From Nitrososphaeria archaeon (GTDB taxonomy: Archaea > Thermoproteota > Nitrososphaeria > Nitrososphaerales > JAAOZN01), in assembly GCA_029775855.1 (NCBI GenBank), contig JARVJZ010000003.1:128001-192000 (forward strand): a stretch of DNA of 64,000 bases. Reading direction: 5' to 3'. Shown one piece after another: positions 8,514 to 15,669 of the stretch. The first letter of the stretch is position 1; each line of letters begins with the position of its first letter. Both the position numbers and the translations under genes were made by a program. The notes under the pieces are model-generated. The model saw only the letters and a list, made by a program, of their open reading frames with translations. It was not told where the DNA came from and did not search any database.

Positions 8514-9644
8514 TTGGCTACATATAGAGTTGCTGTAATACCTGGAGATGGTGTAGGGCCAGAAGTTATACGCGAAGGCAAGAAGGTATTAGATGCGGTG
8601 AGTGAAGTAGACTCTTTTGAAATAGAGTGGGTAGAGTACCCTTTCGGCGCAGAGTATTACTTAAAGACAGGCAAGACGCTTGACGAAGATTCACTTAAAG
8701 AACTCAAGCGGTATAAGGCGATTTATCTCGGTGCCGTAGGAGATCCGAGGGTTCCTCCAGGGGTATTAGAGCTAGGGATTCTACTCAAGCTACGCTTCTA
8801 TATGGATGAATATGTGAACCTTAGACCAGTTAAGCTTTTTGAAGGCGTGGATACCCCTCTTAGAAATAAAAGTGAAAAGGATATCTGCTTTGATGTAGTT
8901 AGAGAGAACACCGAAGACTTTTACATCGGTGTAGGGGGAAGAGTAGCGAAGGTCCCTATCAGACAACAGCATAACCTTATGCGGGAGCTCTATAACCTTA
9001 AGTTCAATCTGGATATCGAGGGAGATGCGGATGAAATAGCCTATCAATTAGGCGTCATAAGTCGAAGGGGTGCTGAGCGTGTCATAAGATACGCTTTTGA
9101 GCTTGCTGAGAGAAAGAAGAAGCGAAAGGTATCTTCAGTTGATAAAGCGAATGTCTTGACAGAAGTGTATGGTCTTTGGCGAGAAGTCTTTGCTGAAGTC
9201 TCTAAATGTTATCCACATATTGAGACAGAGTATATGTTTGTAGACGCTGCTGCCATGTGGTTCGTCAAAAACCCAGAATGGTTCCAAGTAGTCGTTACCC
9301 CAAATCTCTTTGGAGACATCTTAACAGATCTAGGTGCGATGATACAAGGAGGCCTAGGTGTTGCACCGGGAGCAAATATAAACCCTTTCGGCACTTCAAC
9401 CTTTGAACCCATACACGGCTCAGCCCCAAAGTATAAGGGGCAGAACAAGATTAACCCTATTGCGACGATTCTCGCTGGCGCTCTTCTTCTTGAAAACCTT
9501 GGGTTATACAGCTCTGCGGCTAAAGTTGAGGATGCGGTTAGAGCGGTGCTGAGGGAGGGTAAGGTTCGCACCTACGATTTAGGCGGTTCTTCAACCACAG
9601 AAGAAGTAGGTGATGCGGTTGCAGAAAAGCTTAGGAGTTCTTAG
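8514..9644 (+). CDS. leuB: 3-isopropylmalate dehydrogenase
   Basis: [37 protein letters not shown]. Lies in the BCAA gene context. Confidence 0.85.
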
Positions 9645-10023
9645 GTCTCCAACCCAAAGCCAAGCTACCCCCTATAACTCCGAGTATCAACCCTAGCAGG
9701 AAGCCGCCGCCTCCAAATATGCTCAGTATAGATAAGACGAGGATAGCTGCTCCCCAACCACTACTCCCAGCGGGTCGATAATAGAGCATCAGTGCTGCAA
9801 ATATGGTGAGAGCGCCTAACACTAAGCCGACTACGCTCAACGCGAACATCAATCTTCCGAGGGCTAAAACGATACTACCAGATAAACCGCGTGGCGTCAT
9901 AACATAATCTAAGGTGTTAGTTAAAGCTTGGGTAGATAAACCAACTACTAACCCATTCGCGAAGATCAATGCACCAGCGGCTAGGGTGAGGATGAATGCG
10001 GTGTAGGGTTTTTCACCAGACAT
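9631..10023 (-). CDS. Small membrane protein (DUF6114-like)
   Basis: Four hydrophobic segments, [21 protein letters not shown]-terminus. Confidence 0.6.
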
Positions 10024-10051: not shown

Positions 10052-11575
10052 TTAAGATATCTTAGTGTTGTTGTTCATCTTCTTTTGCTTGAGTAAAATT
10101 TTGTTCATCCCCTTTATAAGCGCTTCAACACTAGCCACAACGATGTCATCACCCATGCCTCTGGCTGAAGATATGTTGCCCATGCTGTCCCCAACTTTTA
10201 CTATAACCTCTGCCATAGCGTCTGAGCCGCCGCTTAAAGCCTCAAGCCTATACTCCTTCAAAAAGATCTTCGCAACCTTCTCAGTCACGCTTTGAATAGC
10301 CTTAACAGCTGCGTCAACAGGCCCTACTCCAGTAGCTGAAGCGACATAAATCCTACCATCAAGGTCGAGCTTAACCGAAGCAGTAGGCACTACATTAATA
10401 CCAGTCATAACAGCAAAATCGAGCAGCTTTAGAACCTTTTCATTCTCTTCAGGAACCTTAAGGACAGAACGCGCTATAGCTTCTACATCTGAGTCTGTTA
10501 GTGTTTTACCTTTATCCCCCAGCTCCTTAACTTTGCTGACTATTAACGCAAGCTGCTCATCGTTAGGTGATAACCCCATTTCTTGGAGCTGAGCCCTTAT
10601 GCCGTGGCTACCAGCGTGCTTGCCGGCTTGAAGCCACCTTGTTCTACCAACTACTTCTGGGTCTAGGGGTTCGTATGTAAAGGGTAGAGATAGTATGCCG
10701 TGTGTATGTATACCAGACTCATGTCCAAATGCGTTATCACCTACAATCGCCTTGTTAGGTTGCACAATTACCCCAGTTAGCTTAGAGACCAGTCTGCTCG
10801 TCTCGTAGATGAGTTTCGTGTTGATTTTAGTCTTCTTCATGTAAAGGTTGTGGAGAGCCATCACAACCTCCTCTAGCGAAGCGTTGCCGGCCCTTTCACC
10901 AAGTCCGTTTACAGTTACATGCACCTCTGATGCCCCAGCTTCAACAGCAGCGATGGAGTTTGCTACAGCCAGTCCAAAGTCGTTATGGCAGTGAACAGCG
11001 ATAGGTACATCAACAACGCTCTTCACCTCCCTAACTAACATAGCCATCCTAGACGGTGTTGAGACCCCAACAGTATCAGGAATATCGAGCCTATCAGCAC
11101 CAGCATCCACTACCGCCCTATAGAACTCCTTTAGAACTTGAGGCTCTGTTCTAGTAGCATCTTCAGCAGAAAACTCAACTTTAACGCCGTGCTTCTTCGC
11201 ATACTCAACACCTTGAATAGCCTTCTCAAGAGCTTGTTGTCTGCTCATCTTAAGTTTATAGTTGAGATGAATGTCTGAGGTTGCAATAAATAGATGAATG
11301 CAATTCACATCGGAGCTTAGTGCAGCATCTATATCGCTCTTCTCCACCCTAGCGAGTCCACAGACTTCAGCGGTCAACCCCTCTTTAGCAATCATTCTCA
11401 CAGCTTCAGCCTCGCCTTTTGATGCTACTGGAAAGCCTGCTTCAATGGTATCGACACCTAACTTATCTAGCTGCCTCGCAATTTCTAGTTTATCCTCTGA
11501 TGTCAATGTTACACCTGGTGTCTGTTCGCCGTCTCTGAGTGTGGTGTCAAATATCCTTATGTACTCATCTACCAA
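10052..11575 (-). CDS. leuA: 2-isopropylmalate synthase
   Basis: [28 protein letters not shown], regulatory domain GVGPVDA. Confidence 0.92.
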
Positions 11576-11589
11576 CCGCTAAACACCAT

Positions 11590-12081
11590 CTAGCCTCTTG
11601 CTATTGCTGTTATGCCCGTTCGTGAAATATCTCTGATTCCGAAGGATGTTAATATCTTTATGAAGGCATCTATCTTATCGGGGGCACCAGTAACTTCAAT
11701 CGTCATGGTTTCTTCACCTACATCAACAACTTTACCTCTAAAGATTTGGACATAATTCATTAAATCTGCACGAGCCTTCTGGTCGGATGCATTAACCTTA
11801 ATCAAAGCAAGTTCGCGCACAACCGAATTCTTAGCTTCAAGCCTCACTATCTTGATAACATCTATAAGCTTAGCCAACTGCTTCACAAGCTGCTCAACTG
11901 TCGATTCATCACCATTAACCACGATAGTCATCTTAGATAAGCCAGGCTGCTCAATCGGACCAACAGTTATACTTTCAATGTTAAAGCCTCTTCGTCTAAA
12001 CATGTTTGAAGCTTTAAAGAGTACTCCAGGCTTGTTCTCGACTATCGTTGATAATATGTAGCTTTCACTCAATTTTTTCAC
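11590..12081 (-). CDS. ilvN: Acetolactate synthase small (regulatory) subunit
   Basis: VENKPGVL..FRRRGFNIESITV ACT domain, RELALIKV. Confidence 0.95.
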   Translation of the reverse strand: MKKLSESYILSTIVENKPGVLFKASNMFRRRGFNIESITVGPIEQPGLSKMTIVVNGDESTVEQLVKQLAKLIDVIKIVRLEAKNSVVRELALIKVNASDQKARADLMNYVQIFRGKVVDVGEETMTIEVTGAPDKIDAFIKILTSFGIRDISRTGITAIARG

Positions 12082-13775
12082 CCATTCGGACCATAGAGTA
12101 TGTCCTTCAAACCTGCACCTGGTGGGACGAAGGGGTATACATCCTCTTCAGGATCTATTGGTACATCTATTACGGTTGCAACTTCGCTGAGTAGTGCATG
12201 GTTAAATGCCTTTTCGAATTCTTCAAGTGTATGCGCTCTTATACCTACTGCACCATATGATTCGGCTAATCTTACAAAGTCTGGGGTGCTTCCAAATTTC
12301 ACTGAAGAATATCTTCTGTTGTAGAAGATTCTTTGCCACTGCTCTACCATACCAAGAGACCTATTGTCCATTATCACAACTATAACAGGTATCCCCTCCT
12401 CCACACATACAGCCAGAGAGTTCTCAGTCATACAAAAGCTACCATCACCAGCCAAGTCGACCACAGGAACATCTGGTTTTGCAACTTTAGCGCCTATTGA
12501 GGCTGGGAAACCGAAGCCCATTGTGCCCAATCCTGTAGAAGTTATCCAAGTCCTAGGTCTCACTACTTTGTAATGTATCTCAGCGAACATTTGATGTTTT
12601 CCAACTTCAGTAGCAAGTATGCCTTCAGGAGGGAGCAGTTGCCTAATTTTCTTTATAATTTGAACGCTCATTAGTCTGTTTGAGCCGTCTAACTTAGCAT
12701 TCCTCCTAACCTCTTCCCTAACTTCTTCTACGCGCCTCAGCCAAGGTGAGTCGTTTCTCTGCTCGACTATCTTACTCTTAAGCCTCTCATATATCTGCTC
12801 TAGAGTTACCTTGGCATCTCCGACTATAGGAAGATGAACACGCTTATTCTTACCTATTTCAGAAGGATCAATATCTATATGTATGATCTTAGCATCTGGG
12901 CAAAAGGCGTCGAACCTGCCAGTAGAGCGGTCTGAGAAGCGAACCCCCACAGAGAGCAGACAGTCTGTCTCAAGCACAATCCTGTTAGCTTCAGCAGTTC
13001 CGTGCATACCAATCGGCCCAAGCGCAAGAGGATGATTCTCTGGAAAAGCACCCTTACCTATTAATGTTGTAACAACAGGAGCCATTAGAAGCTCAGCGAT
13101 CTTTCTGAACGGCTCGTGCGCATTCGAAAGATTTACTCCACCACCACCCCAAAGCACAGGCCTTTCAGCAGATAGAAGAAGGTCAACCGCTTTTTCCACC
13201 TGCAGGGGATGTGGTGTGACAACAGGCCTATATCCTCTTATCGTAACCTTATCTGGAAAGATCATATTTGCCTTCTCTTGCTGAACATCCTTTGGTATAT
13301 CAACGAGGACAGGGCCGGGTCTGCCGGTTGAAGCTATGTAGAATGCTTTCTTTATGTCAGAAGGTATCTCCTCTGCCCTCATTGGTTGAAATGTGTACTT
13401 TGTTATAGCTGTGGTTATCCCTATTATATCGACTTCTTGGAACGCATCTTTGCCTATCATGGCTCTTGGGACCTGACCTGTTATGGCTACTATGGGTGAA
13501 GAGTCCATGTAGGCTGTTGCTATTCCTGTCACCAAGTTGGTTGCACCTGGGCCAGAAGTTGCCATGCATACTCCGACTTTGCCGCTTGCTCTAGCGTATC
13601 CATCAGCCATATGTGCTGCTGACTGCTCGTGTCTGCATAAGATAGATCTTATGCCACTGCTGTAGAGAGCATCGTAGATAGGTAGGTTGGCTCCACCTGG
13701 TATACCAAACACAACAGAGACATTTTCTCGTTTAAGGGCTTCTATAACCGCTTCTGCACCGATCATCTCAACCAT
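12078..13775 (-). CDS. ilvB: Acetolactate synthase large subunit
   Basis: RHEQSAAHMADGYAR, TSGPGATN, GDGSF...N ThDP motif. Confidence 0.96.
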   Translation of the reverse strand: MVEMIGAEAVIEALKRENVSVVFGIPGGANLPIYDALYSSGIRSILCRHEQSAAHMADGYARASGKVGVCMATSGPGATNLVTGIATAYMDSSPIVAITGQVPRAMIGKDAFQEVDIIGITTAITKYTFQPMRAEEIPSDIKKAFYIASTGRPGPVLVDIPKDVQQEKANMIFPDKVTIRGYRPVVTPHPLQVEKAVDLLLSAERPVLWGGGGVNLSNAHEPFRKIAELLMAPVVTTLIGKGAFPENHPLALGPIGMHGTAEANRIVLETDCLLSVGVRFSDRSTGRFDAFCPDAKIIHIDIDPSEIGKNKRVHLPIVGDAKVTLEQIYERLKSKIVEQRNDSPWLRRVEEVREEVRRNAKLDGSNRLMSVQIIKKIRQLLPPEGILATEVGKHQMFAEIHYKVVRPRTWITSTGLGTMGFGFPASIGAKVAKPDVPVVDLAGDGSFCMTENSLAVCVEEGIPVIVVIMDNRSLGMVEQWQRIFYNRRYSSVKFGSTPDFVRLAESYGAVGIRAHTLEEFEKAFNHALLSEVATVIDVPIDPEEDVYPFVPPGAGLKDILYGPNG

Positions 13776-13833
13776 AATTCACACACTCCATATGCATACC
13801 AACCCACACCTTTGAATATTATAGATGTGGGCT

Positions 13834-13914
13834 CTAAGATACAATCAACAATACGAGCTGCACAGCTAATAATTTGCTACGCACTTCCTTCGAAGTTTGC
13901 AGCTCGCTTATCAA
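13834..13914 (-). CDS. Putative ilvB leader (attenuator) peptide MISELQTSKEVRSKLLAVQLVLLIVS
   Basis: TTG...TAG, 26 codons, 9 of the last 12 are Leu/Val/Ile. Starts about 27 nt after a TATA-like box and ends 58 nt before the ilvB ATG. Confidence 0.65.
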   Translation of the reverse strand: MISELQTSKEVRSKLLAVQLVLLIVS

Positions 13915-13940
13915 GCCCAGCAGTAGCTACCTTATACCTT

Positions 13941-13974
13941 GTTAATAAGTTTTCTCAAAAGCAAATATATTAAA
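13941..13974. promoter_or_regulatory. Back-to-back TATA-like boxes for the ilvB leader (-) and ilvD (+)
   Basis: Minus strand ACTTATTAAC (13941-13950) preceded by a purine-rich BRE-like run; plus strand AAATATATTAAA (about 13963-13974), about 27 nt before ilvD TTG. Confidence 0.55.
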
Positions 13975-14001
13975 GGTTGTGGAATATAGGTTAGGGTCTA
14001 T

Positions 14002-15669
14002 TTGAGAAGCAGTAAAATTAAGGATGGTGTTGATAGAGCGCCTCATAGAAGTCTTCTAAAGGCTGTGGGTGTCAAGGATGAAGACATGCAGAAGCCCTTC
14101 ATAGGAATAGCAAACTCGTATACGGACATTGTGCCTGGGCATATTCATTTAAACGAGTTAGCTAAAGTCGTTAAGCAAGCTGTAAGGGAGGCTGGCGGCG
14201 TTCCATTCGAATTTAACACCATAGCTGTGGATGACGGGATAGCTATGGGTCATCTTGGTATGAGATATTCTCTACCATCAAGAGAGTTGATAGCAGACTC
14301 TGTGGAGACGATGGTTCAAGCACACTGCTTTGACGCACTAATCTGCATAGCGAGCTGCGACAAAATAGTTCCAGGTATGCTCTTAGCCGCAGTCAGACTC
14401 AACATTCCCACAATCTTTCTTAGTGGCGGCCCTATGCCAGCAGGTAGGTTAAAAGATGGTAGGGCAATAGACTTCTCAACCGTCTACGAATCAGTAGGCG
14501 CATACTACAAAGGTCAAATCACACTAGAAGCGCTTAAGGAGATCGAGGGACTCGCGTGCCCAACTTGCGGCTCCTGCGCTGGACTATTCACAGCCAACTC
14601 AATGAACTGCGTCTGCGAAGCGTTAGGAATAGCACTACCGGGCAACGGCACCGCGCTAGCAACATCTCCAGAGCGGTTAGATCTAGCACGCAAAGTTGGG
14701 AGAAGCATCTTGAAGCTTTGGGAGTTAGATCTTAAGCCTCTTGATATAATAACTGATAAGTCGATTGATAACGCATTCGCCTTAGATCTAGCTATAGGCG
14801 GCTCGACAAATACTGTTTTGCATCTTCTTGCTTTAGCTAAAGAGGCTGGCATCGACTACTCCTTAAAAAGAGTTGATGAGCTTTCAAGTAAGGTTCCTCA
14901 TCTATGTAAGCTGAGCCCAGCATCAAACTTTCATCTTGAAGACTTTGCGGCTGCTGGAGGTGTGGGTGCGGTGCTTAAGGAGTTGAGTAAGCTCGATGAT
15001 GTAGTTGATCTGAAGCAGATTACAGTTACCACAAAGACTCTTGGAGAAAATATCCGTGACTCTATCATTCGTGATGCTCAAGTCATAAGAACTGTTGAGC
15101 AACCATACAGCAGAATTGGTGGAATAGCCGTCTTATTCGGAAATTTAGCGCCCGAAGGTTCTGTAGTTAAAGTTGGTGCGGTAGACCCAGCAATTAAACA
15201 GCATAGGGGTGAAGCGGTTGTGTTTAACTCAGAAGATGAAGCCCTTGAAGGTATCAAAGAAGGTAAAGTCGATAAAGGCGATGTGGTCGTGATTAGATAT
15301 GAGGGGCCTAAAGGTGGACCTGGTATGCCTGAAATGCTCGCACCTACATCTATGATTGTTGGCATGGGGTTAGGCAAGGATGTTGCCTTAATCACTGATG
15401 GGCGCTTCTCAGGAGCTACTAGAGGAATATGTGTGGGACATGTCTCACCAGAGGCTGCTGCTGGAGGACCAATAGCACTAATAGAAGACGGCGACACCAT
15501 AAAGATAGATTTAGAGAAGAAGTCTATCACAGTAGAGCTTTCAAATGAGGAAATGGACGAGCGTAGAGCAAATTGGAAACCTATTGAACCACGCTTTAAG
15601 TCAGGCTACTTAAGAAGATACTCTATGCTGGTAGGCTCAGCGAGTAGAGGCGCAACGCTTACCTCCTAA
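14002..15669 (+). CDS. ilvD: Dihydroxy-acid dehydratase
   Basis: [39 protein letters not shown]. Confidence 0.97.

Follow-up and report, generated by a model that had tools for sequence, protein, structure and literature searches.

The ilvB-ilvN-leuA operon of this Nitrososphaeria archaeon is preceded by a short open reading frame (ORF) that, on computational evidence, is probably a leader-peptide gene acting in cis as a sensor of the supply of charged Leu-, Val- and Ile-tRNA. The window, by which we mean the whole stretch of 64,000 nucleotides that was analysed, belongs to a genome of 1.5 Mb in 6 contigs with 43% G+C and also encodes Pus10. A first-pass annotation had described a TTG-initiated minus-strand ORF of 26 codons between a TATA-like box and ilvB, with 9 of its 12 terminal codons specifying end products of the branched-chain amino acid (BCAA) pathway. 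Re-reading the sequence confirmed the ORF, and a recount of the final 12 codons (13872-13837) again yielded five Leu, three Val and one Ile (LIV) codons, including a TTA-TTA and a TTG-TTG pair. The features of the region are listed in the table.

Features of the ilvB leader region and of the downstream operon, in window coordinates
Feature	Position	Strand	Basis or remark
Leader ORF	13834..13914	-	TTG start, 26 codons, TAG stop (13836-13834); reads MISELQTSKEVRSKLLAVQLVLLIVS
Leu/Val/Ile codon run, proposed sensing segment	13837..13872	-	9 of 12 codons
ilvB, acetolactate synthase large subunit	12078..13775	-	TIGR00118, 772 bits
ilvN, acetolactate synthase small subunit	11590..12081	-	NF008864, 205 bits
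leuA, 2-isopropylmalate synthase	10052..11575	-	NF002085, 694 bits
TATA-like box of the leader/ilvB promoter, CTTATTAA	13942..13949	-	Read in the sequence; invariant (C/T)TTATTAA in three same-genus genomes
Purine-rich GAGAAAA just upstream of the TATA-like box, at the BRE position; putative BRE	13950..13956	-	GAGAAGG in two same-genus genomes
GGAG, likely Shine-Dalgarno (SD) element of ilvB, 11-14 nt before the ATG	13786..13789	-	Read in the sequence
Hairpin A, 5' arm, spanning the TTG start and first codons	13898..13914	-	Whole-leader minimum free energy (MFE) fold; GCGAGCTGC invariant in three genomes
Hairpin A, 3' arm, inside the Leu/Val/Ile run, TGCAGCTCGTATTGTTGA	13845..13862	-	Folding and same-genus comparison
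Hairpin B, 11-bp stem AGCCCACATCT / AGGTGTGGGTT, 11-nt loop	13801..13833	-	Begins at the first base after the stop codon

The leader ORF before ilvB exceeds chance expectation. When the 200 nt upstream of ilvB were subjected to 300 dinucleotide shuffles, the mean best LIV score of a 12-codon tail was 4.3, compared with 9 for the actual sequence (p=0.003) and 4 for its opposite strand. Within the genome itself, a tail with 9 of 12 LIV codons was found in 2 of the 349 upstream regions with a gap of at least 120 nt, one of them that of ilvB, and 8 of 12 in one more, so that the ilvB leader ORF is among the top 2. The other two high-scoring tails, located before an ORF without a family match and before sdhA, look like chance occurrences. 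A scan of 901 upstream ORFs (uORFs) in the same genome for leaders dedicated to other amino acids found none. Its top matches were a Thr-rich ORF before an ACR3 arsenite transporter gene, an Ala-rich stretch that is part of carB itself, within its true 5' end, and an ORF with Trp codons upstream of a gene without a family match; all three were rejected. Neither the leader peptide nor its 30-residue congener had a match in a collection of about 15 billion proteins.

The leaders of three same-genus genomes differ by a 3-nt indel that preserves the frame, by a change of the stop codon from TAG to TAA, and by changes in the tail that are either synonymous or replace one LIV residue by another. A fusion of the uORF to ilvB by read-through or frameshifting was rejected because the relative frame of the two differs among these genomes, the stop codons ending at -58, -57 and -56. 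About 30 nt around the GGAG motif are nearly invariant in the genus, and the sequence between the TATA-like box and the leader ORF is variable. A 9-codon ORF, MHMECVNYG (window 13768-13797, minus strand), begins 4 nt past hairpin B and extends across the start of ilvB (ATGGTTGA); it occurs in all three genomes with non-synonymous differences, in a region that doubles as the ribosome-binding site (RBS) of ilvB.

To estimate how widely such ORFs are distributed, we took 89 genomes of the same order (30 + 60 loci, one dropped as too short) and scored the 200 nt that precede ilvB, with the ilvB starts of relatives placed by alignment. Of 41 relatives, 34 had the gene itself, and a wider search of the order located it in 337 of 401 genomes, a tally that includes five flagged as unpublished; these five contributed to no other result. 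A locus was taken as positive if it contained an ORF of at least 12 codons with at least 8 LIV codons among the last 12, and was tallied if the ORF ended 25-80 nt before ilvB. BCAA-rich uORFs before ilvB in relatives, despite sequence divergence, had been suggested as a check on the first-pass annotation, and the outcome was clearly positive: 54 of the 89 genomes carried such an ORF, as compared to 2 of 89 on the opposite strand and a mean of 3.7 in shuffled sequences. Lowering the threshold to 7 LIV codons gave 64 versus 4 of 89. Positives were present in 16 of 18 families, the two negative ones (f2 and f11) being represented by one genome each; since related genomes are not independent, these counts show the spread of the ORF rather than a probability and overstate its statistical weight. 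The 35 genomes without a strong LIV tail include 8 of 10 in family f9 and 17 of 24 in f15. This conservation of BCAA-rich uORFs provides good support for a functional leader peptide of Leu, Val and Ile codons.

Outside the order the pattern is patchy. Only 2 of 40 genomes from 24 other families of the phylum reached the threshold (opposite strand 0/40). Two Archaeoglobaceae loci have the same layout, and in the class of Archaeoglobus 15 of 31 genomes were positive versus 0 of 31 in the control. Named carriers include Nitrosarchaeum, Nitrosotenuis, Nitrososphaeraceae and Archaeoglobus, and the closest ilvB loci with a name belong to Nitrososphaeraceae, Nitrosopumilaceae and Bathyarchaeia. No LIV-tail ORF was found in the single representatives of Methanobacterium, Methanolobus, Methanoregula, Hadarchaeota and DHVE2, nor in most of the bacteria among the named ilvB loci compared.

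Some of the loci upstream of ilvB showed other patterns. In f9, four loci (L012, L203, L204 and L205) have runs of Met codons (MMRMMMV, MMMMV) followed by Ile, Gly and Leu, with no Leu/Val/Ile tail. Loci from f35, f30 and f39 as well as a named Bathyarchaeota locus (L261-L263, L267-L269, L273 and L051) have in common an ORF-like motif, MRD[IST]RVRRN.. / MRDR[YH]LNSWD.RV. This motif, 100-135 nt upstream of ilvB, possibly marks another kind of conserved regulatory element, and L261, L262, L263, L268, L269 and L273 gave no match to Rfam. Short ORFs of 13-15 codons (MIELLHRIVLVKISF, MIEPLRPTALVRI and MVKLLHLEVLVKI) were located 54-74 nt upstream of ilvB in L258, L259 (identical to L039) and L270, from families f33 and f49 (Bathyarchaeia, going by the name of L039), and may be a shorter form of the BCAA leader. 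Several ilvB matches in f12 (L009, L010 and others) contain one in-frame stop codon, TGA or TAA, which may lie within the aligned part just 5' of the true ilvB start.

The gene ilvD is located on the plus strand from 14002, divergently from ilvB, and the 226-bp spacer is therefore a divergent promoter region with two back-to-back promoters. An apparent TTG start of ilvD at 14002 is preceded, about 30-40 nt upstream, by a TATA-like AT-rich box of its own (window 13955-14004, plus strand), a layout that suggests a leaderless ilvD mRNA without a leader ORF. At the other end of the operon, a 130-codon ORF directly 3' of leuA (window 9631-10023, minus strand) had no NCBIfam match. Archaeal TATA boxes begin about 30 nt before the transcription start, and by this rule transcription toward ilvB is predicted to start at around 13916-13920. 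The window's ORF would thus be a near-leaderless first cistron, as in the leaderless short ORF (sORF) type, with a 5' untranslated region (UTR) of about 5 nt. A TTG start on a 5-nt leader may initiate poorly, which counts against a sensing leader peptide in the case of the window's ORF. Contigs from three metatranscriptome runs over 11500-15500 were short and matched parts of ilvB and ilvD, the segment 13543-14021 being outside their coverage.

The predicted arrangement recurs in the relatives. Of 53 positive leaders, 49 have a TATA-like 8-mer; in 41 of them the first ATG past the predicted start (beginning of the TATA motif + 30) is in frame with the LIV ORF, with no stop codon in between. 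The corresponding 5' UTRs are 1-10 nt long, as calculated from the TATA spacing rather than from mapped starts. In six Nitrosopumilaceae genomes the leader stop codon is 28-33 nt from ilvB, a gap into which no promoter fits, and the leader ORF must therefore be on the same mRNA as ilvB.

Could the ORF be a chance occurrence upstream of the real ilvB promoter? The candidate for such a promoter is the TATA-like motif TCTATAATATTC at about 13814-13825, downstream of the ORF, and an AT-rich motif some 40 nt before the ilvB ATG would suit this role. The motif is the loop of hairpin B, however, and of the two TATA-like sequences only the upstream one is kept in the two other genomes of the genus. 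We therefore rejected it as the promoter of ilvB. The ORF, for its part, is conserved across two phyla, and we regard its origin by chance as extremely improbable. Another alternative is that the ORF is translated constitutively and, without sensing BCAAs, opens the leader, loads ribosomes or couples translation to that of ilvB. Its place as the first ORF on a near-leaderless transcript agrees with such a role, which nevertheless leaves unexplained both the specificity of the tail for Leu, Val and Ile and the restriction of the ORF, within this genome, to ilvB; we consider it quite unlikely.

We also examined the amino acid composition of the peptides, which bears directly on the preferred reading of a BCAA-sensing leader. 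The peptides are conserved within families and cannot be aligned between families, where composition alone is in common. For this analysis, tails were chosen blindly with respect to residue by requiring at least 9 NUN codons among 12, such that Phe, Leu, Ile, Met and Val all counted, and 29 of the 89 regions passed. Among the 269 NUN codons in these tails there were only 3 for Phe and 3 for Met (2.2%), as compared to expectations of 17.3% from the own proteome and 21.5% from NTN triplets on the opposite strand. With a single tail per family the number was 1 of 112 NUN codons (P=1.4e-8). When the tails were compared to 12-mers of matched hydrophobicity from the proteome, Phe, Ala, Gly and Met were found to be depleted (Phe 0.5% versus 7.6%) and charged residues to be more common. 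Both results speak against a peptide of the membrane and likewise against a DNA element that is simply U-periodic.

A small hydrophobic peptide that acts in trans, for example in the membrane, and is merely co-transcribed with ilvB would account for the hydrophobic C-terminus, which has a mean Kyte-Doolittle value of 2.5. At about 12 residues, however, the hydrophobic stretch is short, the four residues named above are depleted, and charged residues interrupt or end the tails. Nor is there any sequence conservation between families or any counterpart in the protein collection searched, and a function in trans is accordingly very unlikely.

The leader RNA was predicted to fold into two hairpins, as computed for the whole leader. 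In hairpin A the 5' end of the ORF pairs with the first part of the LIV run, and in the window's lineage (f1) the probability that the LIV tract pairs with the upstream part of the leader is 0.52-0.68. Hairpin B follows the stop codon directly and forms with a probability of 0.97. The 45 nt past the leader stop codon have a folding energy of -15.2 kcal/mol, and a value of -15 was reached by only 0.5% of 632 regions before gene starts and 1.5% of 329 regions after stop codons in the genome. The arms of hairpin B are kept within the genus, with one change from A-U to G-U, and the loop varies in both sequence and length. For the 53 positive leaders, the segment after the stop codon had a median MFE of -14.0 and a median z-score of -2.48; 33 of the 53 scored -2 or below, as compared to 1 of 53 control windows. 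Stem sequences vary from family to family, and compensatory changes were observed within f4 and f12. In the alignments of these two families 92.6% and 92.7% of the cells are paired, as compared to 32-54% with the partners slid, and f12 has 9 cells with double changes versus 3.9±1.3 in shuffles. A stem sequence similar to CCCACA/TGTGGG recurs in several families. Within the own genome CCCACA..TGTGGG occurs at 2 loci, which is about the chance level, and hairpin B was rejected as a genome-wide motif.

These structures bring up the alternative that the functional element is a structured RNA, made up of the two hairpins and recognised by either a regulatory protein or a metabolite, in which case the ORF would be incidental and its U-rich NUN periodicity would simply follow from the structure. 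Hairpin B is second only to the ORF in regularity, its stem sequence recurs as described, and the folding revealed no ribosome-dependent switch, all of which would fit. Such an RNA does not, however, explain why the reading frame, the start position and the stop codon at the base of hairpin B are kept across families of wholly different sequence, why the indel in the genus maintains the frame, or why Phe and Met are avoided among the NUN codons, for which there is no structural reason. Nor did it match a known RNA family: searches of Rfam yielded no relevant match in the window segment 13000-14800 (E up to 10) and none in 9 related loci (E up to 1). We consider a structured RNA with an incidental ORF unlikely.

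To examine how translation of the leader might be read out, we slid a ribosome mask along 23 leaders, covering from -15 to +13 nt around the A-site as the assumed footprint. No alternative structure of the antiterminator type, mutually exclusive with another, was found in these leaders. Hairpin B stayed formed under the mask unless the A-site was located on about the last two codons or on the stop codon, in which case it was physically covered. The hairpin after the stop codon is stable in the whole-leader ensemble of 28 of the 53 leaders, and in these the zone in which the ribosome abolishes it averages 1.9 sense codons. At least one LIV codon falls within this zone in 23 of the 28 leaders, and a mean of 7.8 LIV codons are located farther upstream. 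A starved ribosome would therefore mostly leave hairpin B in place, and a ribosome completing the ORF would melt it.

An oligo-T run is the archaeal signal for intrinsic termination. In the window's lineage hairpin B is not followed by a U-run, and a scan for sigma-70 and terminator consensus sequences, which is not designed for archaea, revealed no terminator-like site. Neither hairpins nor T-runs are enriched at the 3' ends of genes in the own genome. Of the 53 spacers, 17 had a T-run of at least four residues, most of them from f4 and f12, and the combination of a hairpin with a T-run was seen in f4, f12 and Archaeoglobi. In the Archaeoglobi the leader stop codon is followed by a GC hairpin and a T-run, or by a T-run alone, and then by the SD and ilvB. 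Were hairpin B a plain terminator, starvation would favour termination and a ribosome keeping up with the polymerase would favour read-through, a response opposite to that expected of a biosynthetic operon. The first-pass annotation had inferred that ribosome stalling on BCAA codons controls AHAS and IPMS. Conservation and composition uphold the leader peptide on which that inference was built; of the features that define transcription attenuation of the bacterial type, the U-run and the antiterminator were not found in the window's leader.

Two mechanisms acting on the ilvB RBS were rejected as general explanations. The first was sequestration of the SD by the LIV tract: the mask opened the RBS in 5 of 53 leaders versus 6 of 53 in the control. 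The second was sequestration of the RBS by the freed 3' arm of hairpin B, for which accessibility with a ribosome at the stop codon was compared to that with a ribosome eight codons upstream; the mean change was 0.01, and the RBS was opened in 6 of 53 leaders versus 1 of 53 controls. The probability of pairing between the LIV run and the ilvB SD was 0.00 in f1 and averaged 0.44 in f12, where an anti-SD:SD helix is predicted. Beyond f12, such pairing was observed only in individual leaders from f19 and f5. Taken together, the expression platform appears to differ between lineages; the sensing half is well supported and the read-out is possibly lineage-specific. Read-out at the level of the transcript, by termination, pausing or processing at or after hairpin B, is a serious though tentative candidate, read-out at the initiation of ilvB translation is somewhat less probable but possible, and the remaining probability falls to other steps.

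From the ORF and its position at the front of the transcript, its conserved and BCAA-specific composition, hairpins A and B and the geometry of occlusion, all of them computed, we infer as follows how the leader is translated and holds the ribosome, in which direction expression responds and how the signal is read out. Transcription would start about 5 nt before the TTG codon, and the leader ORF would be the first to be translated on a nearly leaderless mRNA. The time that the ribosome takes to pass the terminal run of Leu, Val and Ile codons would report on the availability of BCAAs. In the free RNA the run would be paired with the 5' end of the ORF in hairpin A, and the stop codon would adjoin hairpin B. 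A ribosome held on the run would open hairpin A and let hairpin B stand, whereas a ribosome that finishes the ORF would cover the 5' arm of hairpin B and melt it. The difference between a held and a finished ribosome would then set the expression of ilvB-ilvN-leuA, presumably to a higher level with the ribosome held, as suggested by the logic of the pathway.

The enterobacterial leaders ilvBL, ilvL and leuL are transcription attenuators based on leader peptides, and the first-pass annotation had likened the region to their layout. The comparison holds for a short leader ORF in a BCAA operon, a run of Leu, Val and Ile codons near its end and a strong hairpin before the first gene; it does not extend to the U-run in the window's lineage or to the antiterminator. 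Other differences are the archaeal TATA promoter, the nearly leaderless ORF, the stop codon that adjoins the hairpin, and the regulatory codons, which form the 3' and not the 5' arm of the first hairpin. The enrichment in codons for end products that marks classical attenuators was observed both in the window (9 of 12) and, with specificity for BCAAs, across lineages, and the ORF also has the expected position in the 5' leader of an amino acid biosynthetic operon, with translation being predicted. In the E. coli pyrBI attenuator the leader ORF extends across the terminator, and what is sensed is the speed of the polymerase, as set by UTP. The archaeal leader resembles pyrBI in the lack of an antiterminator and in that a ribosome close behind the polymerase would physically block the hairpin. 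It differs in that the ORF ends before the hairpin, and the pyrBI logic would here result in the wrong sign for a BCAA operon.

Among bacterial systems described more recently, the ilvBNC leader peptide of Corynebacterium glutamicum, or ilvB-II motif, is likewise a uORF before ilvB and is reported to regulate the ilv operon by a three-hairpin model (PMC11857589, PMC10272879). Translation of a leader without a classical ribosome-binding site has been reported for the same species, according to a title cited in PMC13158618. The Corynebacterium leader differs from ours in being bacterial and of the three-hairpin type, with no sequence in common. The mycobacterial polycysteine leaderless sORFs, or Cys ribulon, are reported to contain a run of cognate codons on which a stalled ribosome remodels the mRNA (bioRxiv 10.1101/834739). 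They are similar to the archaeal leaders in being leaderless first-cistron sORFs with a cognate-codon run, and f12 follows the same logic of pairing between tract and SD. They concern another amino acid and another domain of life, and pairing of the codon run with the RBS was not found in the window's lineage. Lacking the U-run, the antiterminator and the pairing between run and RBS, the leader in the window was assigned neither to the classical attenuators nor to the mycobacterial type, although at the sensing step it would work like both.

The first-pass annotation had held amino acid-sensing leader peptides to be barely documented in archaea. In agreement with this, our search of the full-text literature, with most subscription journals and supplements outside its coverage, retrieved no report of an archaeal example. 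Two papers on archaeal ribosome profiling mention uORFs, in the portions accessible, in general terms only.

Control by leader-peptide attenuation through coupled transcription and translation is textbook knowledge and counts as an invention of bacteria; such coupling also exists in archaea. The leaders described here might represent a ribosome-sensed, amino acid-dependent control of a biosynthetic operon in archaea, either old or repeatedly invented, that is present in Nitrososphaerales including ammonia oxidisers and in Archaeoglobi. Its wiring, undescribed in bacteria, would consist of a near-leaderless ORF with a stop codon abutting a hairpin and no antiterminator. Because the hairpin stands when the ribosome starves and melts when the ORF is completed, with no antiterminator, it would here be a permissive element and not a terminator. 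We consider this broader interpretation doubtful at present. With a conserved, BCAA-specific leader ORF before ilvB in Archaeoglobi as well as in ammonia-oxidising archaea and their relatives, the question of archaeal attenuation could be tested directly in cultured strains. Such an ORF would also offer a first way into amino acid regulation in Nitrososphaeria, and would flag a class of unannotated genes of 14-35 codons that are missed by gene callers.
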